A stretch of DNA of 54,685 bases from Puniceicoccales bacterium (GCA_031255005.1 JAIRTH010000019.1:1-54685), one strand, 5' to 3'; counted from the stretch's first letter, positions 13,469-45,994 are shown. Notes: a model not told the origin generated them from the letters alone. Numbers and translations are program-made.

Positions 13469-14375
13469 AGGAAACCTCCCTAACCATTAGATAGAGTGCA
13501 CTAGGTATTATGATGGCTCCGCCCAACAATGTTTTTATTGTAATTACTTCTCCGAAAAGTACATAGCCGAATAGATATGCAAAAATTAACTCAAAATATC
13601 TGAAAGGGGCAACAGCGGACACATCCACATAGGAGAACGATTTCAATACGCAGAAAAGTAAAAAATTTGAGCTCATTCCAAGTATGAAAAACAAGCAAAG
13701 TTGGTAGATGCTAAGTGGTTGCCACAGAATAATTGCCGGTATGCTAGATAGAGTCATGGTTATAAAAGCTGTGTAAAATATGGATGAAATGGTACTTTCT
13801 CTGGAACTCAACATCTTATTTATTATGTCCAATAATGCGAACATGGACGCGCCAAAAAGCAATATCAATGTGCCAGATAGTGGGAAATTCGATGCTTCAG
13901 GATTGATAACTATGCCCACGCCGATGAAGCCGCATAATGTGGCCAACCATCGAGCACGTCCGATGTTCTCTTGCAACATTATAGCTGCTAAAAGCAGTGT
14001 GAACATTGGAATGGTGAAAGTGATGAGGGAGGCCACATTAAGGGGAACTGATTTTAACCCTGAACACCATAATGTGATGCCAGAAAATAATATTAGGCCA
14101 CGGACAATATGGGCCAGCGGCCTAGTGGTTTTCAGCGATTTTAACTGGTTTTTTAACACAAACGGCAACAACGTAATAACTCCGAAAAAGAATCGCATGA
14201 ACACAATCTGTAACGGATGACATTTTAGTCCTATATGCTTCATAATGGAATCATTGGTCACACAGCACAATAGGCTTGCAACGAACCACAATATCCCACG
14301 AAAATATCTAGATGTTTGCCTATTCATAAAATCAACCGACTTGCATAGACTCTTATATATGTACGAAATCGTCAA
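13413..14375 (-). CDS. EamA/DMT-family transporter (10-TM permease)
   Basis: 320-aa very hydrophobic ORF with two EamA-like halves. The substrate is unknown and the start is uncertain. Confidence 0.65.
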   Translation of the reverse strand: MTISYIYKSLCKSVDFMNRQTSRYFRGILWFVASLLCCVTNDSIMKHIGLKCHPLQIVFMRFFFGVITLLPFVLKNQLKSLKTTRPLAHIVRGLILFSGITLWCSGLKSVPLNVASLITFTIPMFTLLLAAIMLQENIGRARWLATLCGFIGVGIVINPEASNFPLSGTLILLFGASMFALLDIINKMLSSRESTISSIFYTAFITMTLSSIPAIILWQPLSIYQLCLFFILGMSSNFLLFCVLKSFSYVDVSAVAPFRYFELIFAYLFGYVLFGEVITIKTLLGGAIIIPSALYLMVREVSFGAKKICNKKGISCCQSV

Positions 14376-35252: not shown

Positions 35253-35626
35253 CAGGCCGAGGTACTGTTCTTTCTAAATTCGCGATTTTCCTTGACCTTC
35301 ATGGCACTTTTACCGATTCGGCCGCGGAGGTAATATAATTTCGCCCGCATGGGTACGCTTTCGCGTTCGACTTCTATTTTCATCACGTTTCGCGAATGGA
35401 CAGGAAATATCCTCTCGACACCTTCGCCAAAGGAAATTTTTCTAACGGTGAAAGTTTCGCCTATGCCATAGCCTTTCCGGCAGAGGACAATGCCAGCGAA
35501 AATCTGTATACGTTCTTTATCTCCTTCGCGCACTTTGACATGCACGCGTACACCATCACCAACTTTGAAATTATCACGATCTTTTATCAGCTGACAATCA
35601 GTCAATTCTTTTATAATAGGGTTCAT
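35252..35626 (-). CDS. rplS: 50S ribosomal protein L19
   Basis: [33 protein letters not shown]...[21 protein letters not shown]. It forms an ATGA overlap with trmD. Confidence 0.95.
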
Positions 35627-36297
35627 TTTTGTAAATCCTTGTTCCCTTCTAAGTGTTTTTTATCAGAATTCAACCATTTTCGAAAAATATCTGGTCTGCG
35701 CAACTCAGTTTTTTCAATCATCTGCCGAAGGCGCCATCTGTTTATTTCGATGTGGTTTCCCGATAGCAATACCTCTGGCACAGAAATTTCTTCGAATTTC
35801 ACCGGTCTAGTATACTGTGGAAATGATAGCAATCCGTTCGAGAAGCTGTCCTGGGTCAATGAGTTAGCGTTACCGAGGACGCCTGGTACGTATCTGCATA
35901 CTGCATCTGCTAGCACCGCCGAAGCCAGGGTTCCGTTGGTTATTATATAGTCACCAATGGAAATTTCCAAATTTACCCGAGATTTTCTTACCCTTTCGTC
36001 GATGCCTTCGTAATGCCCAGATAATAAAATCAGGTGTTTTTTTTGGGACAGCTCCTTGGCCAAGGCGGATGTTAACAGCTTGCCATCAGGGCACATATAT
36101 ATCACTATGGAGGTTTCTGTCCGAAATTTATCTATGGCTGAACATATTGGTTCGGCCTTCATGACCATACCAGCTCCGCCGCCGAATGGTCTATCGTCGG
36201 TTATTTTATGTTTGTCGGTGGCAAAATCGCGTATATTATAAACACCAAACTCAATCAATCCAGATTTTGTAGCTCTGCTCAATATGCTACAAGACAC
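35623..36297 (-). CDS. trmD: tRNA (guanine37-N1)-methyltransferase TrmD (coordinates follow the ORF-track GTG; the real start is probably upstream, see finding)
   Basis: [46 protein letters not shown] and [14 protein letters not shown]. The conserved N-terminal strand RIDFLSLFPQLL is encoded in frame upstream of 36297. Confidence 0.9.
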
Positions 36298-36747: not shown

Positions 36748-38778
36748 ATGGTTGATATGGATGGAAGAAGTCTTGTCTTGATAGGGATGGTAATGGGACT
36801 ATCCCTATCAAGCTATGCCTTGGCCAATAAATACTTACATAATGCAAAAAATGGGCATACTTCGGAGAATAATCAGCCTGCATACGAAGATGATGATGAA
36901 GAGGCTTTGGCTGAATCCAAGACTAAGGTGAATCCTAAGGCGAGAAAATCTAGTGTGAAATCCGTGGCAAATGCTAGCAAAGAAGATAATGACGAAGAGG
37001 CTTTGGTTAAATCCAAGACTAAGGTGAATCCTAAGGCGAGAAAATCTAGTGTGAAATCCGTGGCAAATGCTAGCAAAGAAGATGATGACAAGACTTTGGT
37101 TAAATCCAAGACTAAGGTGAATCCTAAGGCGAGAAAATCTTGTGTGAAGTCCAGGAAATATATTTTGCCAAAAAAGAAGATAGATATAAACGAAAAGAAG
37201 ATAGATATAAACGAACAGTTATCATTTTATATATCTAAAAAGAAATCAGTGGGCATTGTTAACCCAGGGCCACCCAAGTATATTTTTGAAAAAGTATACC
37301 TATCCATCCAAGAACAGAAAGTGGACGCAGCGATGGTATTTTGCTGTTTCAAAACGGATGGTGGCATAAATGATAACTTTAAAATAGACTCGATACACAT
37401 AATCCTGAAAAATGGAGATGTATTTATTTCTTGTAACAAAAGAAAAAGTACAGAAATCCTAGATAAAAAATCACTGGATCAATTAATAGACAAAAATACT
37501 AAATGTTCGACGTTTTTAATGGTAATTGTCAATAATGCGGCCGTAAATTTTATAAAATTAAACGGTGAGGATGGCCAAGATAGAAACATTATGGCCATGT
37601 TGAGTTATATATTAAGGAAAAATAGATATTATAAATTTACATTAAATATATCTGACAGCAAAAGATCAGATCATAAAAATATCACTACCAGATCATATGA
37701 CTTATTACAAGGACAACCTACTAAATTAAATAGCCAAAGCAGTTCTGGAAAAATTATCTGGGAAAAAGTTAAATGCCTATCGCTGGGTTCGTATTGTTTG
37801 TGCAAAGAAGTAATAAAAAAAACCTATCCAATTATTGCCGGTGGCATAGGTATCTGCGTTAAGGGTCTTTTATTGCAAATCACGAAACCAAATGGTCCAA
37901 TTTTCAGCATTGCAGGTAGCATGGGTGACAAAATTTTATCAGGGTTAGAAAACATGGATAATAGCATTGGATCATTTGCAGCAGATAATATTCGTGGAAG
38001 TAAGTTGGGCAGAGAATTATTTTCGATGATCACTACTGGTCTATTTGGTGAATTTACTAATAAATACTTGGACAATTATTCAGATAACCAAATAAAATCA
38101 GGTCTAAATGACCAAGGCATTGTTAACAAGATGGTACATTCAACTGCTGGTTTATTCCGTAATGGACTCGATATATCAACCATGTCCATCACTGAGCCAA
38201 AATTCATTGAATTCATTTGTGATGTCACTAATATTGCCCTAAGTGCCATTGTGGGAGATAATAGCACAGATCGTTTTTTAGACAAAGATAATCCCGAGTA
38301 CCACAAATCCTGGTTTGCCATAGGGAAACAAAATTTTGCTAAAAAGTTAGGCATGTTACCTGGAGTGGGTGGATTTTTAAAAAATGCATTCGAAGATAAG
38401 GAAATGAGTCTAAAGGAAGCCCGTCAAGAAGAAGTTGCCCGAAGGGAAGATTACAAAAGAGCCAAAGATTGCTTGGATAGATATATAAAAAGAAAAAAGA
38501 CACAAGAAGATGATCCTACACTGAAAACTCTCAAATTAGCCATGGAAGTTGCTGAGCTTAGATCCATGAGAGCTGGATATAAAACCCAGATCATTGATTT
38601 TAAAATTGATAGCCAATCCTACCAAGATGAAACTAAAAAAAATAATATAGAAAAAAGCCTAAAAGATACGGAAAGTAATATTTATGATAAGAAAGCCGAA
38701 ATAATAAAAATTATGCAACAAAACAAATTGAAAATTTTGGATAATCTTAGGAAAAAATATGAAAATAACAATATATGA
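36748..38778 (+). CDS. orphan exported protein A (676 aa): signal peptide, Lys-rich tandem repeats, N-domain, central hydrophobic segment, coiled-coil C-terminus
   Basis: Long uninterrupted ORF in AT-rich DNA. N-terminus SLVLIGMVMGLSLSSYALA; 32/31-aa repeats; central YPIIAGGIGICVKGLLLQI; heptad-like Lys/Glu-rich tail. I recognise no family. Confidence 0.65.
   Translation: MVDMDGRSLVLIGMVMGLSLSSYALANKYLHNAKNGHTSENNQPAYEDDDEEALAESKTKVNPKARKSSVKSVANASKEDNDEEALVKSKTKVNPKARKSSVKSVANASKEDDDKTLVKSKTKVNPKARKSCVKSRKYILPKKKIDINEKKIDINEQLSFYISKKKSVGIVNPGPPKYIFEKVYLSIQEQKVDAAMVFCCFKTDGGINDNFKIDSIHIILKNGDVFISCNKRKSTEILDKKSLDQLIDKNTKCSTFLMVIVNNAAVNFIKLNGEDGQDRNIMAMLSYILRKNRYYKFTLNISDSKRSDHKNITTRSYDLLQGQPTKLNSQSSSGKIIWEKVKCLSLGSYCLCKEVIKKTYPIIAGGIGICVKGLLLQITKPNGPIFSIAGSMGDKILSGLENMDNSIGSFAADNIRGSKLGRELFSMITTGLFGEFTNKYLDNYSDNQIKSGLNDQGIVNKMVHSTAGLFRNGLDISTMSITEPKFIEFICDVTNIALSAIVGDNSTDRFLDKDNPEYHKSWFAIGKQNFAKKLGMLPGVGGFLKNAFEDKEMSLKEARQEEVARREDYKRAKDCLDRYIKRKKTQEDDPTLKTLKLAMEVAELRSMRAGYKTQIIDFKIDSQSYQDETKKNNIEKSLKDTESNIYDKKAEIIKIMQQNKLKILDNLRKKYENNNI
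36898..37152 (+). repeat. in-frame tandem repeat, 96/96/93-bp register, about 2.7 copies (plus a 21-bp x2 repeat at 37174-37215)
   Basis: atccaagactaaggtgaatcctaaggcgagaaaatct recurs at 36915, 37011 and 37104. It encodes (E/K)(E/T)AL(A/V)(E/K)SKTKVNPKARKS(S/C)VKSVANASKED(N/D)D. aagaagatagatataaacgaa is duplicated head-to-tail at 37174 and 37195. Confidence 0.9.
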
Positions 38779-38825: not shown

Positions 38826-40574
38826 ATGAAAATAAAAACTAAAATATTAACTCTATATTTAATAACGGTAATATTATGTCACTTAGGTAGTTATACCCAT
38901 GCTTATTATGATTCTCAAAGCGAAGATGACGAATATTCAGAAGATTACAGCCAGCTGGAGGATTACGGCTGGCCAGAACGTAATAGTGAACCATTGCAGT
39001 TAAATAAATTTTCGAGAGCCAATGAAAATGCTTTTCCGTGTAATTTTATTAAAGAAAGTTACAAATTTAAATATGAAGACAATCAGGAATTTAGTAAATC
39101 TAGAAAGAATATTTGGAATGAAATATACAATTATATAGCCTTTTATAAACGAGCTGAAAACACAAATACCGAGCCTATAGATAGAGTTATTTTAGATGGA
39201 AAAGTAATTTTAAAAAATGAAACCATAGAATATATAGACATTATATATGCCACTGGAGATATCTATGTTTCATCTAGGGGTGGAAAAGATTTAGAGTATT
39301 TAAAACCGCAAACCAATGCTAAGTATAAACATTTTCATGGTAAAAAAGAATATTTTAGCTATGCAGAATTGCCGAGCTCTTCAGTGCCTTTAATCGTTTT
39401 GGAACATAAATCTCCCTATATGGACAAAAAAGTTTTTTATACGCAAAACATCAATGGTATTGGTAATTTCACGAATAAAATAAAGTCAACTAAGTTTAAA
39501 AAAATTGGTAATATAGAAGATTTTTTTGCGAAGGAACACGTGCCTTTGGAGCCGTCGGTATCTTACGGTACGCCTGCGTTTTTTAGGGCTACCGCTTCCA
39601 ATGTTGTTATTAATAGTCCGCAGTCGCCTGGTATATTGAGTCGCGCTTTGAAGGGCGCTGGTTCATTTATTTGGCGTAATAAAGATAAAATTGCGCTGAT
39701 AGGTTATTCAATTGCATCTAATTACTCTCCATTTATGCCACTCATTGCAAGCGGCATCAGATGTATCGCTGGTAAAAGGATTGATATCAATGGAAAAAGA
39801 ATACATAATATGGTCAATGTTGTGAAAGAATTAACAATGAAAGGAAAAAAAATTATTGATAGATTTGAATTTCTGAAAAAAGAATTCGATAAAATAACAG
39901 GTTTCTCTAGTTTTGGCCAATGGGGTATCTACAATAATATAAAGACAATTGAAACCACTGTCAGTGGCATCGTAAACCTAGTTGATCGTACTTGTAATTA
40001 TAAGAGCGATAGCGACGACGAAGATCTCAAAGACTATTTCGGAGATGAATATTGTGAGGGTTTAACCAAAGAAAGGAGAAAATTGATAAATGATATCAAT
40101 GATTTATATGATGATCCTAGTAAAGTATATGCTATGGACGTTGGTTATCTAAGGGTAATTTTAAATGACTTAAAAGGGCCAATTTTTGAGAGTTTGATAA
40201 ATATGGGTAAAAATTTTTCTTGGATGAAAGGTAGCTTTAGAGCGAAAAATGATACCAATGCTATAGCTTCTAATATTACCGAAAAATATATGATCTTTTA
40301 TCTGAATAATATTGTCAGGATGACATATTTGATGATAATAATTGACACTAAAATTGGCGAAAAAGAAGAAAATATTTTTAATAAATATAAAGAATATTTA
40401 AAATGCGATTTAATCGATGAATTTGAATATAACGAAGAGAAGAGTGATGCAAGTGTCAAAACTCTTCTTCTTGAGTATAATACACCAGAACTGAGAATTA
40501 ATCGTATCAAGGAATTAACCAAAAAAATTAAAAGAATTAGAGAAGAAATTAAAAAAACTAAGAAAAAAATATAA
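38826..40574 (+). CDS. orphan exported protein B (582 aa)
   Basis: AGGA Shine-Dalgarno 8 nt upstream. Signal-like KILTLYLITVILCHLGSYTHA; acidic stretch; central hydrophobic IALIGYSIASNYSPFMPLIASGIRCIAG; C-terminal module DYFGDEYC...LYDDP...ELTKKIKRIREEIKK. I recognise no family. Confidence 0.65.
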   Translation: MKIKTKILTLYLITVILCHLGSYTHAYYDSQSEDDEYSEDYSQLEDYGWPERNSEPLQLNKFSRANENAFPCNFIKESYKFKYEDNQEFSKSRKNIWNEIYNYIAFYKRAENTNTEPIDRVILDGKVILKNETIEYIDIIYATGDIYVSSRGGKDLEYLKPQTNAKYKHFHGKKEYFSYAELPSSSVPLIVLEHKSPYMDKKVFYTQNINGIGNFTNKIKSTKFKKIGNIEDFFAKEHVPLEPSVSYGTPAFFRATASNVVINSPQSPGILSRALKGAGSFIWRNKDKIALIGYSIASNYSPFMPLIASGIRCIAGKRIDINGKRIHNMVNVVKELTMKGKKIIDRFEFLKKEFDKITGFSSFGQWGIYNNIKTIETTVSGIVNLVDRTCNYKSDSDDEDLKDYFGDEYCEGLTKERRKLINDINDLYDDPSKVYAMDVGYLRVILNDLKGPIFESLINMGKNFSWMKGSFRAKNDTNAIASNITEKYMIFYLNNIVRMTYLMIIIDTKIGEKEENIFNKYKEYLKCDLIDEFEYNEEKSDASVKTLLLEYNTPELRINRIKELTKKIKRIREEIKKTKKKI

Positions 40575-40599: not shown

Positions 40600-43500
40600 A
40601 TGAGAACAAGAAAAATTATTTTAGGATTGTTATGGATAATACTATGTATCCCCAATACTAACGGCAATGGTAGTAATAGAGGGAGACGGAGTGATTATAA
40701 ATCTAAACAATTCGATAAAAGGTCTATGAATAGTTATGGATTGCAAGGAAGTCAAATACCTAACGGCAATGGTAGTAATAGCGGGGGATGGAGTGATTAT
40801 AAATCATTCTTGCCTCGTCGACGCTCTAATATGCCAAAACCTAAAAATATTTTTTCGCAAGAGATAGAAAGTTTCAAAGGAGTTTTTTGTGATATGTACA
40901 AAAGAATACCTGATTCTGATGAGCTATGCGTTTTATTAATACGCAATAATTCTGTTCAGGATAGAGAAGAAGTTAGATCGGTTAAAGATGCCTTAAAGGC
41001 TGATTTGATGTACATAATAATGAAAAATGGTTATGTATATAAGACCTTTCCAGATTATCGACATGAAGAGTATGCTAAATTTAATAAATTAGTGTATGAA
41101 TCTGCCAAATTGCTAGGAGAAAAAGGCAAATATTTAATATGTTCTATTACAAAAGGAGATAGCGGCATCAGCAATATTTCAGAACAAGATGGCCGCATTT
41201 ATAATATTCGTAATAATATGAACCAAAAAGCTTTATTTGATGAACAGGAAAATGACATAAGAAGTGATAGATTTAAATACTGTTGTGTCATATATAGTAT
41301 AAATGAACAGATGCCCATGGTCATGCCCAGTGGCATGAAGAAAAGGCCTATTAAGCGGAATGAGTCTATACCTACAATTGATACCTCAATGGACAGTTCT
41401 TTTAAATGGAAACCAGTTCAGCCCAATGCGCCGCAGCAAAGTAAATTTCAGAGAGCTTTTTCTTCGGTAAAGTCATTTGTTAAAGGACATAAAACTGCCA
41501 TAATAGTTGGAGCTGGTGCAGCGGCTAGTGCAGCCATTGGCGCATACTTTGGCCCGGAGATCAAAAATTTTGCATCATCCGCCTTTGGAAAATTGAAAGA
41601 TTATTTTGACAATGCCAAGGATAATCATAACCAGATACTGGGGATACCAGAGACACCAGCATTAGCGTCGTTTTCAGCCGAAAAATCATCGATAATACCA
41701 CCGACAGTGGTCACGCCAGAAACGCCATCAACGGCTCTGATGTTATATCAAGATGATCAATCTACCGCGGAGAAAGCTGCGAATTTCTTTAAATCAAATC
41801 CAAAAATAGTCATTCCATCGGAACAAAAAGTAGTCAGGATTGTCGAGGAAAGTAAACAGTTTAAAGAGAAGCAGAAAGAAAATCAGGAGAGGGAAGATGC
41901 CATGAAGGATGATATGAAAAAACTATACGGTAAAATAGGCTATATTAATAGCATAATAAACTCCGAAAATAATGAGCTAACTGGCATTGAAAATAAATAC
42001 AAAGAATATTTACGGGTTTTAACCAATGGAGCAAATGATCATAATGCATTGGTAGAGAAAAAGATAGATGAAGTTGGTAAGGAATATGTTGATTGGGTTA
42101 ACAACAATGTGGATGATTGTCAATATGCTTACAGAGCTAAAATAGATTCAGATGCTGGACTTATATACTCGGAAATGCTTCCCGATGGAGAAGGAAACCT
42201 AAAAGATCTATGTGAGGAATTTGATGATAAATATGGTAATGTAAAAGAATCTATGTTAGGTAGATATAATGAGGCTAAAAGAAAGTTTGATGCGTTATGT
42301 AAACGTTATTACTCAGTAAAGAAAAGTGCTATGGAATTAGGATACAGTGTTACAGAAATTATGGAAAAAAGGAAAAATCTGTTTATAAAAAATCCGTTTA
42401 TAAATGATGGATCAAGTGGTAACAGTACATTCTATACAGCTAATATAGTTAATGACGAAGTTAATGACGAAGTTAATGACAAAGTTAATGAAGGATCTAT
42501 TTGGTCCCGATTGGGTAATATGGTAAATTCTGTGAAAAAATCTGCAAGTGATACGGTAGAATTTATGAAAAAATCTGCAAATGATACGGTAGAATTTGTG
42601 AAAAACAAATATGATAATGTAACTCAAAATGTTGGGTCTAGTTTATCAGAACTTGAATCCAAGTTGAGGAATAATTTTAGTAGTTTAAATACGACTAATA
42701 ATATGACTAATGTTAGCTATAATTATACTAATAATACTACTACTAATGAACCTCAGTCCGAAAGTGATATGGCAAAACAAAATGAGCAACACCTATTAAG
42801 GTTGCTTGATGATGACTATTGGACTATGGATCGTGCAATTAAAGAGGTGAATGATGTTATTAGAAAATATAAGGAATATAATAAAATTTTAACCAATATC
42901 CTTAAGGAAGAAAACCAAAAAATGGCTATTACTAACCGTTTCAATGAAGCCAATGGTAAATATTCTGATCTGTTTGATAAGTCTTTTAATAAGTTTAATG
43001 AAATATTCGACATTAAATTAGATAAGGTTAAATCAATTGAGAAAGATCTCCGTCTGCTTGAGAGTCAAAAAATAGACTGTAATAGCTTAAGGAAAAAAAT
43101 GAATGAATATAATGTTAAACTTGATAATTTGAAAGTACTATGCGATAGCAGGCATGGATTGGAAATAGAAGCTAATAATCTTAAAAATGAAATTTTTATG
43201 AAATTAGAAAATATAGAGAACATTGACAAGGAGGATTTTGGGGAAAATTATTGTAGAAATATTACTGAGACAAAACGATCTATGATGGAAAAAGTTAGGT
43301 CGCTGTATTCCAATCCAGGAACGGCCCGCAATTTTACCTCCGAAGAGTTGGAAAAATTTTTTACAGAAATAGACACTATTAGAAATAGCATCCATAAATA
43401 TTCGAAAAAAATTAGTAAACATTTCAGCATGGAATACAACTATCGGAGAAAAATAGTCGATCTATCATTTCAGAGAATTTCGGCTCTATACTTTGTTATT

Positions 43501-43689
43501 GGAATAGCATTGGATAAGCTTGGCCATGCGAGATATGACACCAATGCTGATTCGGAGAATAGAGGAAAATATATCGATGGAGATGAACTAAATAAAATGG
43601 CTAGTAGAATACAAAGTGTCATTGATTTTAATAAAGAGATATATAATACCAGAAAATCCTCAGGCGCATATAAATATTTGGATTATTAA
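40600..43689 (+). CDS. orphan exported protein C (1029 aa), coiled-coil rich
   Basis: Strong GGAGG Shine-Dalgarno. Signal-like MRTRKIILGLLWIILCIPN; NGNGSN..SDYKS duplicated; central TAIIVGAGAAASAAIGAYFG; long heptad-like regions; internal repeats; C-terminal FGENYC...LYSNP module. I recognise no family. Confidence 0.7.
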   Translation: MRTRKIILGLLWIILCIPNTNGNGSNRGRRSDYKSKQFDKRSMNSYGLQGSQIPNGNGSNSGGWSDYKSFLPRRRSNMPKPKNIFSQEIESFKGVFCDMYKRIPDSDELCVLLIRNNSVQDREEVRSVKDALKADLMYIIMKNGYVYKTFPDYRHEEYAKFNKLVYESAKLLGEKGKYLICSITKGDSGISNISEQDGRIYNIRNNMNQKALFDEQENDIRSDRFKYCCVIYSINEQMPMVMPSGMKKRPIKRNESIPTIDTSMDSSFKWKPVQPNAPQQSKFQRAFSSVKSFVKGHKTAIIVGAGAAASAAIGAYFGPEIKNFASSAFGKLKDYFDNAKDNHNQILGIPETPALASFSAEKSSIIPPTVVTPETPSTALMLYQDDQSTAEKAANFFKSNPKIVIPSEQKVVRIVEESKQFKEKQKENQEREDAMKDDMKKLYGKIGYINSIINSENNELTGIENKYKEYLRVLTNGANDHNALVEKKIDEVGKEYVDWVNNNVDDCQYAYRAKIDSDAGLIYSEMLPDGEGNLKDLCEEFDDKYGNVKESMLGRYNEAKRKFDALCKRYYSVKKSAMELGYSVTEIMEKRKNLFIKNPFINDGSSGNSTFYTANIVNDEVNDEVNDKVNEGSIWSRLGNMVNSVKKSASDTVEFMKKSANDTVEFVKNKYDNVTQNVGSSLSELESKLRNNFSSLNTTNNMTNVSYNYTNNTTTNEPQSESDMAKQNEQHLLRLLDDDYWTMDRAIKEVNDVIRKYKEYNKILTNILKEENQKMAITNRFNEANGKYSDLFDKSFNKFNEIFDIKLDKVKSIEKDLRLLESQKIDCNSLRKKMNEYNVKLDNLKVLCDSRHGLEIEANNLKNEIFMKLENIENIDKEDFGENYCRNITETKRSMMEKVRSLYSNPGTARNFTSEELEKFFTEIDTIRNSIHKYSKKISKHFSMEYNYRRKIVDLSFQRISALYFVIGIALDKLGHARYDTNADSENRGKYIDGDELNKMASRIQSVIDFNKEIYNTRKSSGAYKYLDY
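42448..42600 (+). repeat. in-frame micro/minisatellites inside ORF C: 12-bp unit x4 (42448-42495) and 33-bp unit x2 (42535-42600)
   Basis: gttaatgacgaa gttaatgacgaa gttaatgacaaa gttaatgaagga encodes (VNDE)2 VNDK VNEG. aaaaaatctgcaa(g/a)tgatacggtagaattt(a/g)tg x2 encodes KKSASDTVEFM KKSANDTVEFV. Confidence 0.9.
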
Positions 43690-43715
43690 AAAATCTAGTT
43701 GTTAAAACTGATGCC

Positions 43716-43763
43716 GGCCAGAATAGGATTTCCCTATTATCCAAGGGAAAATTTATTCTGGCC
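43716..43763 (+). other. 48-nt near-perfect hairpin between ORF C and ORF D (possible terminator/attenuator or RNA processing site)
   Basis: In GGCCAGAATAGGATTTCCCT-ATTATCCA-AGGGAAAATTTATTCTGGCC I paired, by hand, 17 Watson-Crick pairs, 2 G-U pairs and 1 mismatch over 20 positions, with an 8-nt loop. No U-tract follows. Confidence 0.5.
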
Positions 43764-43807
43764 TAAATGTGTTTGCAATTGAATCGGTATTTAATAGAAT
43801 TTTTAAC

Positions 43808-45229
43808 ATGGAAATGCGAAAAATAGGGAAAATTATCTTAGGTTTACTATGGATAATATTATGTATGCCAAATTCTAATGGTAGTTATAGTGATCGGCAT
43901 GAATTTCCTAAGATAGAGCAAAAATATAGCATAGTTAATAGAGTGAAAAATTTTTTCACTTCATCTAGAGTTGCTAGCCTAGGCCTAACTGAGAAGGCAA
44001 AAGAATTGATCGAGACAGTAAGAGGTTTTGGCGAAGATATGATCGAAAGAGTAAGAAGAACTGAAAAATCAAAGGATATGATCATAGGTAAGGATTTGTG
44101 TAAGCGTTTAGATTCTTTTATAGAAAGGATATCGAATGCAATAATAAATATTTCCACAACTATAGATGATATGCAAAAGGTCCGCAGATGTATTACTGAC
44201 GAAACGGCATTTAGTAACATTGAAGACTCGAAGGGAAAGTACTATGAAGCCATTGGAGAGCTTTGCAGAAAATATATGGTATATAGATGTCGTGATTATA
44301 ATGAAATTAAAGAAATGTACGACAGCATAAGGTTAAGAAAGATTAAAGAAATAAGCGATGATATACATAATTTTGAGGAAACATATAAAAAAGAAGGAAA
44401 AAATGATAAAAATTTATATGAAATAAATAAGCGGTTTGAGATTTTTATTAATAAATATAACAAGTTTAGAGATATAGTAGATGAAATGATTTGGGAAATT
44501 TGTGCAATTAGAGGAAGTGCTATAATGATAATGACTCAATTGCTCGAAGAAATTGAAGAGTGTAAGATACAAGATTCATTGCCAGATATAAATGCTTCGT
44601 TGTCGAAAAATTTATTTAAAAGATTTTTTAATACGAGAGGAAATGAGAATGAGATACATGATATGCTCAATTTCTTTCAAGAAAAAATTAAAATGATAGA
44701 CGATAATATTGCTAAGTTTGATGCAATATTTGACAGAATAATAGAAGGTAATGGCGGTGACAGGGAAGCATTTGAAGCAGTAATTAAAAACTATGCTGAT
44801 ATGAAGTCTTTTGAAAATGTTAAGCATATTTTTGATGTTTATAAAAATGCTGAAAAATATATGGTGAATAGCTTTGAATCTTACTGTCGATTGGAGAAAA
44901 GATATGGTATATTTGCGAAATGGCACAATAAACTAAGAGAGAATGTCTTGAATTTTTGTACTAAATTTAGGAATAATATAGAAAAGTCTTATGAGTGGAA
45001 TAGCTATAAAATGATGTATGAAAAATTTTACTCGCAGAGGTATAAAATAAATAAAATAGCAATGAAAGTTTCAAGAATGATGATAATGACGGAACTTTCT
45101 GGGATAAGCGATGCTGGTTTTGAAAAATATAATGTAGGCGATAAGGTCGTAGAAATACTAAGTGAAATTGTATCGAAAGATTTAAGCAAAGCGCTAAAGG
45201 AAGAGCATGAAAATTTCTGTGAAAAGTAA
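43808..45229 (+). CDS. orphan exported protein D (about 473 aa), all-helical/coiled-coil
   Basis: Start set at ATG 43808 (MEMRKIGKIILGLLWIILCMPNSNG) because this N-terminus is near-identical to that of ORF C. The ORF-track GTG at 43769 abuts the hairpin. I recognise no family. Confidence 0.6.
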   Translation: MEMRKIGKIILGLLWIILCMPNSNGSYSDRHEFPKIEQKYSIVNRVKNFFTSSRVASLGLTEKAKELIETVRGFGEDMIERVRRTEKSKDMIIGKDLCKRLDSFIERISNAIINISTTIDDMQKVRRCITDETAFSNIEDSKGKYYEAIGELCRKYMVYRCRDYNEIKEMYDSIRLRKIKEISDDIHNFEETYKKEGKNDKNLYEINKRFEIFINKYNKFRDIVDEMIWEICAIRGSAIMIMTQLLEEIEECKIQDSLPDINASLSKNLFKRFFNTRGNENEIHDMLNFFQEKIKMIDDNIAKFDAIFDRIIEGNGGDREAFEAVIKNYADMKSFENVKHIFDVYKNAEKYMVNSFESYCRLEKRYGIFAKWHNKLRENVLNFCTKFRNNIEKSYEWNSYKMMYEKFYSQRYKINKIAMKVSRMMIMTELSGISDAGFEKYNVGDKVVEILSEIVSKDLSKALKEEHENFCEK

Positions 45230-45321
45230 TCTTTTAAAAATGATGAACTAGCATGAAATGATCTTATTTTCGTAGGCATGCTTACCGTTGAACAATATTT
45301 AATAGAATTTTAAAAAAAATT

Positions 45322-45903
45322 ATGAAAGCAAAAATATTAATTTTTGGGTTGATGTTGGGATTAGGTATCACTAGTCATGGCTTTTGCGCTAAAACAAAAG
45401 GTAAATGCCATCTGAATGGGACTCAGGATGAAGATGTCTATGTCACTTCAGATATTTTCAATAGGTACGTAAAATATTTCGGATTTTCCTATTGCAACCA
45501 TTTAACTCGGCGAAAGATCGAAACCATGGATTGGTTGATGGAACTATATGTTAATCCAGAAAAGCTAATGGATATGGATAAAAATAATCTCATTAAAATA
45601 TCTGGTGAGATTCAATCCCAAATTGGTCCCCATCTTCGTAGCCTCGATTCGGCTAACGATCCATCTCCTCAGTCTCTATGGCGCCAAATTAATATGAGGA
45701 CCGAATACCTATTTCTGGCGACATTAATGGTACTGAAAAAATATACAAAAAGAAGTTCTATCGATGGCGATCATAACCACTGGGTGGAGTATTTTGATGA
45801 ATTTAATTGCAGTAAATATCAAACTTTGGATGAGCTAATGAATCACGTCAAGGAACTAACCAAAGAGATCGAAGAAATGATGAAAAAAGAGAACAAATTG
45901 TAA
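45322..45903 (+). CDS. orphan exported protein E (193 aa): signal peptide plus a stand-alone copy of the B/C C-terminal module
   Basis: MKAKILIFGLMLGLGITSHG, then KYFGFSYCNHLTRRKIETMDWLMELYVNPEKL...HVKELTKEIEEMMKK, which aligns with the C-terminal regions of ORFs B and C. Confidence 0.6.
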   Translation: MKAKILIFGLMLGLGITSHGFCAKTKGKCHLNGTQDEDVYVTSDIFNRYVKYFGFSYCNHLTRRKIETMDWLMELYVNPEKLMDMDKNNLIKISGEIQSQIGPHLRSLDSANDPSPQSLWRQINMRTEYLFLATLMVLKKYTKRSSIDGDHNHWVEYFDEFNCSKYQTLDELMNHVKELTKEIEEMMKKENKL

Positions 45904-45918
45904 TGATTTATCCATATC

Positions 45919-45994
45919 TGGTGCGAGCGAAGGGGTTCGAACCCTCAACATCCACCTTGGCAAGGTGGCACTCTGCCAATTGAGTTACGCTCGC
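45919..45994 (-). tRNA. tRNA-Gly (anticodon GCC), CCA encoded
   Basis: The reverse complement reads GCGAGCG TA ACTC AATTGGCA GAGT G CCACC TTGCCAA GGTGG ATGTT GAGGG TTCGAAC CCCTT CGCTCGC A CCA. This is a full cloverleaf with anticodon loop TTGCCAA. Confidence 0.95.

Follow-up and report, generated by a model that had tools for sequence, protein, structure and literature searches.

This study concerns a low-GC island on one contig of a Puniceicoccales bacterium (GCA_031255005.1 JAIRTH010000019.1:1-54685), in which two adjacent open reading frames (ORFs), C and D, begin with closely similar predicted export signals and continue into bodies that cannot be aligned with one another. The window analyzed here is the whole of this 54,685-nucleotide (nt) stretch, which is contig C7 of a genome (G000) of 865 kb in 42 contigs, 95% complete. 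Between trmD (35623–36297, minus strand) and a minus-strand tRNA-Gly gene lie five plus-strand ORFs, A to E (Table 1), whose GC content is ~31–33%, compared with ~40% elsewhere. None of the five matches a Pfam family (E up to 0.01) or an NCBIfam family. In a search among 5.8 billion proteins, ORF C matches only itself, and ORF D likewise matches only itself, as a call of 454 amino acids (aa).

Table 1. Features of the low-GC island and its right border; positions are counted from the first letter of the window (SPase I, signal peptidase I).
Feature	Position	Strand	Description
ORF A	36748..38778	+	676 aa; first gene of the island; N-domain layout common to B and C
ORF B	38826..40574	+	582 aa; paralog of C; signal peptide MKIKTKILTLYLITVILCHLGSYTHA
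ORF C	40600..43689	+	1029 aa; orphan, predicted exported; paralog of A, B and E
Predicted Sec/SPase I signal peptide of C	40600..40665	+	MRTRKIILGLLWIILCIPNTNG; putative cleavage after NG
C copy of the block shared with D	40612..40679	+	pairwise blastn: 66 nt, 78.8% identity, E 2.9e-12
Internal direct repeat in C	40658..40805	+	46 nt, 93% identity, spacing 102 nt
Hairpin between C and D, terminator-like	43716..43763	+	main stem of the spacer fold; inner stem among terminator-like sites
D upstream region, duplicate of E upstream	43747..43806	+	16-mer TATTTAATAGAATTTT at 43788–43803
ORF D	43814..45229	+	471 aa from ATG 43814; alternative start ATG 43808
Predicted Sec/SPase I signal peptide of D	43814..43882	+	MRKIGKIILGLLWIILCMPNSNG; putative cleavage after NG
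E upstream region, second copy of promoter-like stretch	45255..45314	+	16-mer at 45296–45311
ORF E	45322..45903	+	193 aa; signal peptide and family C-terminal helical domain, nothing else
tRNA-Gly(GCC)	45919..45994	-	right border of the low-GC island

The heart of the similarity is a pair of 39-nt segments, 40612–40650 in C and 43829–43867 in D, both of which encode KIILGLLWIILC followed by I in C or M in D. An original prediction, made from the sequence alone, had counted 33 of these 39 positions as identical and five of the six differences as synonymous, and a direct codon comparison bears out both counts: the synonymous differences are ATT/ATC, GGA/GGT, TTG/TTA, TTA/CTA, and CTA/TTA, and the single nonsynonymous one is ATC/ATG (I to M). 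The similarity is in fact longer than had been stated, running over ~40600–40679 in C and 43814–43894 in D, from the start codon (ATG AGA ACA in C, ATG CGA AAA in D) through PN(T/S)NG and GS. By the Nei–Gojobori method (NG86), the first 23 codons differ by ~1.2 substitutions per synonymous site (dS) and 0.16 per nonsynonymous site (dN), such that the synonymous sites look saturated. Under neutrality, with kappa between 1 and 4, the probability that at least five of six changes would be synonymous is 0.002–0.009. The purifying selection on the peptide that had been proposed is thus supported by the five synonymous differences out of six.

The shared block appears to be confined to this pair. 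When the island was compared by blastn with the whole genome, the C/D block was recovered at E 5e-8, the other matches being internal repeats, and no third copy was found in the 865 kb; a six-frame scan allowing up to four substitutions returned two places, and a degenerate DNA pattern allowing up to three mismatches matched twice in G000 and in none of the 16 further genomes of the family. A degenerate DNA pattern for ILGLLWIILC, which also admits Phe at the Leu positions, occurs at two loci in species-representative genomes and six in metagenome contigs; these eight were judged to be chance matches and set aside, because P-N-x-N-G follows none of them and none resembles the start of a related gene. 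A crude scan of 751 crude genes yielded 161 signal-like N-termini, and among the 12,880 pairs that these form, C–D ranks fourth, with a score of 91 against a mean of 19.2 (standard deviation 5.5).

The shared N-terminus looks like an ordinary Sec signal peptide, predicted to be cut by SPase I. Both proteins are among the 161 signal-like N-termini; C begins with the n-region MRTRK followed by IILGLLWIILCI, and D with MRKIGK followed by IILGLLWIILCM. The hydrophobic h-region comprises 12 residues, IILGLLWIILC(I/M), bounded by K on one side and P-N on the other, and the c-region reads P-N-T-N-G then N in C and P-N-S-N-G then S in D, with small residues at -3 and -1 by eye. Small uncharged residues at these positions before an SPase I cleavage site are what the -3/-1 rule of von Heijne describes. 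The similarity between C and D ends just past the predicted cleavage site. The genome encodes SecY (E 3e-98), LepB (Peptidase_S26, E 6e-31), and three secretins (C15:34209–34805, C25:2979–3473, and C32:8637–9134). About eight of the N-termini in the crude list are, by eye, prepilin-like (of the GFTLVE/SFTLIE type); together with the three secretins, these represent a large secretion or pilus investment for a reduced genome.

The Cys near the end of the hydrophobic core had been given a more particular meaning, that of an atypical lipobox with Leu at -1, in which the Cys would be the +1 residue that carries the lipid in a lipoprotein signal peculiar to the lineage. Genes for Lgt and LspA are present in the genome, and the h-regions of B, C, and D all end with ILC. 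The accompanying observation that a Cys follows the hydrophobic core in several other orphans also proved correct (B ...ITVILCHLGS, E ...HGFCAK, F ...AVNCKA, G ...TNVCDC). However, the sequences I-I-L-C in C and D and V-I-L-C in B break the PROSITE-style rule [LVI][ASTVI][GAS]C at the Leu in -1; this rule flags 22 N-termini of the genome, which include the canonical LTGC, GGGC, LSGC, CGC, and LAC, but none of ORFs A to G. Nor is the Cys kept in homologs, as judged from P0005 and the orthologs of E and A, no C or D ortholog being among them: P0005, in the congener G001, starts MKKRLNPERLMLIVLALLFWTIGDAFG and lacks a Cys in its signal peptide, the Cys of E faces a non-Cys position in its G002 ortholog, and both ORF A and its G001 ortholog lack a Cys in the hydrophobic core. 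A Cys is, moreover, common in the h-regions of this genome, where it occurs in 67 of 161 and accounts for 4.4% of residues, against 1.55% proteome-wide; in 19 of the 161 it falls within the last two h-residues. A good SPase I site lies five to six residues after the Cys in question. Set beside bacterial lipoprotein signals processed by Lgt and LspA, those of C and D are alike in that their hydrophobic core ends with a Cys and the genome carries the pathway genes, and differ in having Leu where those signals have a small residue (Gly, Ala, or Ser) at -1 and in the failure of the Cys to persist in homologs. We consider lipidation very improbable, and the Cys is best read as a plain h-region residue.

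A lineage-specific sorting signal in a broader sense fares no better as a lineage-wide tag. The pattern [IVL][IVL]LC is present in six of the 161 signal-like N-termini, three of which are B, C, and D themselves, and the KIILGLLWIILC pattern occurs in none of the 16 related genomes; these counts together lead us to regard the pattern as absent from the other exported proteins.

The same block bears on where ORF D begins. By arithmetic from the window ORF, the public 454-aa call starts at 43865, at the Met after the Cys, and would drop the signal peptide; it is therefore likely a mis-called start. The true start likely lies at ATG 43814 (MRKIGK...) or ATG 43808 (MEMRKIGK...), since the synonymous-biased conservation upstream of 43865 shows that this stretch is translated. 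Recognizing this corrects a likely start error in the public record of D.

Beyond the signal, the claim that the mature parts are not alignable stood up to Smith–Waterman comparisons tested against shuffled sequences and a reversed control. From residue 36 onward, the C–D score has a z of 2.3 and is reached by 3 of 100 shuffles; the C-terminal parts give z 1.6 (40/500), and the first residues of the predicted mature proteins z 0.6 (254/1000). When the C-terminal half of C is set against D, z is 2.7, but a reversed-C control gives z 2.0, and since the control is nearly as high, the small excess is compositional. Two motifs that had been aligned by eye between the C-termini, F-x-x-Y-C and K-Y-x-x-G-D, were dropped at z 1.6. 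ORF D finds a single weak match in 40 related genomes (G039; E 0.0014, 29% identity over 69 aa), and in the ESM Atlas it has a model of pLDDT (predicted local distance difference test) 0.40 and no usable matches.

ORF C, by comparison, has recognizable relatives. A C-terminal domain is common to B, C, and E (B–E z 7.5, C–E z 4.7–5.4, B–C z 3.3–4.7), and its profile retrieves six proteins among 1.84 billion representatives (E up to 0.001), namely B, C, and E of the window, P0005 of G001, and P0006 and P0007. A, B, C, P0005, P0007, and the G001 ortholog of A align over an N-domain and a Gly-rich hydrophobic segment; D has neither. The AlphaFold2 (AF2) model of the C-terminal domain, from a seven-row alignment, is a confident all-helical bundle (pLDDT 82, predicted template modeling score [pTM] 0.79), for which a fold search against the PDB returned no match (E up to 0.001); PDB sequence searches were likewise empty. 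ORF A has a G001 ortholog at 32% identity (E 1.1e-40), its orthologs within the genus being 32–34% identical, and ORF E has a G002 ortholog at 52%. A, B, C, and E form a fast-evolving family of predicted exported proteins, almost confined to the genus, of which D is probably a member. Matches to residues 24–132 of B in G008:C123 (L023) and G011:C45 (L024) were rejected; these are ankyrin-repeat proteins with acidic N-termini, and low complexity in an acidic stretch is the probable cause. In G005:C8 (L015), ORF E weakly matched another ankyrin-repeat protein, which was also set aside. Ankyrin-repeat proteins are thus encoded by related genomes of a sister genus (G005, G008, and G011).

The DNA upstream of D tells a different story from the block itself. 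The ~60 nt before D resemble the upstream region of E (z 7.8; 0/2000 shuffles) and the C–E spacer of G002 (z 6.4; 0/2000), with the upstream region of A, as a control, giving z near 0. Across the 865 kb there are exactly two occurrences of the 16-mer TATTTAATAGAATTTT, one lying 4 nt before the D ATG at 43808 and the other 10 nt before the ATG of E, and a promoter-like TTGCAA-16-TAGAAT lies at 43773–43800. Between C and D, upstream of the block, there is no similarity (z -0.6); the very recent local duplication, flanking non-coding DNA included, that had been named as a trivial explanation therefore does not apply to this pair. A resemblance between the ribosome-binding region of C (AAAATAGG) and codons 3–5 of D was dropped as being at chance level (z -0.6). 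In G002, the contig that carries the E ortholog starts with the tail of a gene, which matches the tail of C (z 8.9; 0/1000) and not that of D (z 0.0; 475/1000), so that the order there is a C-type tail, a 93-nt spacer, and then E, with no D between. The C–D spacer also folds strongly (43690–43810: minimum free energy -35.8 kcal/mol, z -5.2, 0 of 200 shuffles as good), and its hairpin has no other copy in the genome and is found in neither the D–E spacer nor that of G002. A -10-like TAGAAT lies only ~7–13 nt before the starts of D and E, and by eye neither has a Shine–Dalgarno sequence, whereas C has AGGAGGG; the transcripts from which D and E are translated may therefore be leaderless or nearly so.

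The remaining proposal of the original prediction was that the conserved 5′ end acts as a recombination handle, a tract of homology for cassette exchange of the kind seen in variable surface-protein families. The tandem layout and the fast-evolving bodies would suit such a role, in both congeners the island coincides with a contig end (G001:C1:1-3300 and G002:C32:1-840), and near-identical 5′ tracts do occur in two other tandem pairs of this genome. The first of these (C40:13900-15562, L037) consists of orphan genes starting at 14106 and 14855, with no Pfam family, in which ~300 nt from -210 to +90 are 90–100% identical and the signal peptide has a dS of 0; the mature proteins share 86 of 206 residues, with a dS of 1.04. 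The second (C3:8-3727, L036) encodes orphans of 541 and 529 aa, again with no Pfam family, whose first 90 nt are 97% identical, with a signal-peptide dS of 0; in the mature parts dN (0.36) exceeds dS (0.27), a relation suggestive of relaxed or positive selection. The 5′ ends of both pairs look like products of gene conversion. C and D are unlike them: their DNA is 78.8% identical over 66 nt and no identical run exceeds 11 nt, their synonymous sites look saturated, they share nothing upstream, there are two copies and no more, and the one sequencing run that holds the locus, which may be the source sample, contains no alternative C/D joints in its contigs. Mycoplasma vsp/vpma and Borrelia erp are surface-protein or lipoprotein families with homogenized 5′ ends. 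C and D resemble them as tandem paralogs that start alike and differ in their bodies, and the C40 and C3 pairs behave exactly so; in C and D, however, conservation is of the peptide and not of the DNA, and the upstream DNA is not shared. An active handle at this locus consequently has a minimal claim.

We favor, with a probability of about 60%, a reading in which D is an old head-to-tail duplicate of C and the shared part is an ordinary Sec signal kept by selection. A head-to-tail duplication, for example by unequal crossing-over, would have copied a segment extending from the C start codon to just past the E promoter, so that in the new copy the E promoter would precede a C-type 5′ end. Since then, drift would have brought synonymous and non-coding sites close to saturation, the D body would have diverged or been deleted beyond recognition, and purifying selection for export would have kept the signal peptide. 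Both the mechanism of duplication and the descent of the D body from C are what we infer from this arrangement. Such rapid divergence of a body is plausible here, given the dN and dS of the C3 mature parts and the low identity of A orthologs within the genus.

Several observations weigh against this reading. The bodies of C and D cannot be shown to be homologous (hhalign probability 0.1), and a four-sequence hidden Markov model of the C-terminal domain, run against 2,445 ORFs, finds B, C, and E only and does not find D. Descent of the D body from C is thus unproven, and on this point a transfer of the 5′ end alone fits equally well. In that case, an old partial duplication or gene conversion would have joined just ~80 nt of the start of C to an ORF D of unrelated or de novo origin; the bodies would never have been homologous, and the signal would later have been kept by selection. 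The lack of significant similarity between the bodies, the absence of the family N-domain from D, and its escape from the C-terminal-domain model are all as this would predict, and the genome evidently does homogenize the 5′ ends of tandem secreted paralogs, as in C40 and C3. Against it, a separate event would be needed to bring the E-type upstream region in front of D, whereas one head-to-tail duplication covers both, and the best C–D body alignments, although not significant, are colinear. A transfer restricted to the 5′ end is unlikely on this balance. The promoter-like sites invoked for the duplication are themselves weak evidence, being not enriched over shuffles (57 found against 50.5 expected).

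The points that bear on an ordinary signal kept by selection are of another kind. The test for an excess of synonymous changes was post hoc, the block having been picked since it looked conserved, and the placement of cleavage after NG in C and D is a prediction from the -3/-1 rule. The hydrophobic core is identical at 12 of 12 residues, which has a probability of 0.017–0.05 if hydrophobic swaps are as free as synonymous changes. Signal peptides of family orthologs, by comparison, are poorly kept, with 6 of 22 residues identical for E (mature part 55%) and 7 of 26 for A (mature part 34%), or ~27%. The strictness of conservation in C and D seems to exceed that expected of a generic signal peptide and stays mildly unexplained.

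It is here that a sequence-specific sorting or assembly signal might enter, in which the exact h-region would route both proteins to one secretion system or common partner, or would serve as a short signal-anchor. The identity of the core amid apparently saturated synonymous sites, the low probability that persists even with hydrophobic swaps allowed, and the poor conservation of signals between family orthologs are all consistent with such a role, as are the three secretins encoded within 865 kb. ORF B shares ILC and GSY with the C/D signal when the 5′ ends of the five ORFs are aligned, and by eye the B signal peptide, MKIKTKILTLYLITVILCHLGSYTHA, resembles a diverged homolog. On the other side, the carriers amount to two proteins, the 16 related genomes hold none, none of the eight public pattern loci is a true copy, a 12-residue h-region is too short for a membrane anchor, and the statistics are marginal as well as post hoc. 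That the exact core KIILGLLWIILC, with its weak echo in B, could send an effector-like pair along a given export route, or to a given partner, in the symbiont is therefore an improbable proposition; if true, sequence-specific routing would explain an identical core amid saturated synonymous sites and changed bodies.

Further features of the island accompany these results. Tandem repeats are present in the coding sequence of ORF A (36886–37152; a 96-nt unit, 2.8 copies, 94% identity) and of ORF C (42373–42747; units of 15, 12, and 33 nt), and are typical of fast-changing exported proteins. The 46-nt internal repeat of ORF C re-copies c-region and cleavage-site sequence (NGNGSN..SDYKS) into the mature part. 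Among public runs, DNA of the window is held by one DNA run, labeled as a termite gut metagenome, whose contigs (~7x word depth) match the window with one other letter across the eight pieces listed. The remaining two runs of the same study hold next to none of the locus DNA, and there is no RNA among the public runs listed as holding the locus.

The duplication of C would show how a reduced symbiont genome probably produced an orphan gene for a secreted protein, from a neighbor's promoter and a parent's export signal, with the signal alone staying recognizable afterward. It reveals no new sorting mechanism; it does, however, mark A to E as a candidate host-interaction family, whether of effectors or of surface proteins.

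The signals of C and D resemble the classical SPase I signals of diderm bacteria in their K/R-rich n-region, 12-residue core, helix-breaking Pro, and small residues at -3 and -1, and they differ in that an identical core is carried by bodies unrelated by every test run. Conopeptide superfamilies combine a conserved signal with a diverging body. The same combination is described for MgCRP-I, a family of secreted peptides in mussels (PMC4558851), and for the SVM-motif effectors of phytoplasmas (Pfam PF12113; PMC8026896). The PF12113 signal is not matched by C or D (Pfam, E up to 0.01). As far as these accounts describe them, what all three systems have in common with C and D is an export signal kept by selection while the exported part diverges fast, and we count among the common features their secreted products and a host-associated or antagonistic lifestyle; in those systems many members share the signal, whereas here two genes do and a third shows weak similarity. 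The pairing of a conserved signal with a diverging body is already well known, and C and D are a small two-gene example of it, in which what has been kept is the peptide and not the DNA.

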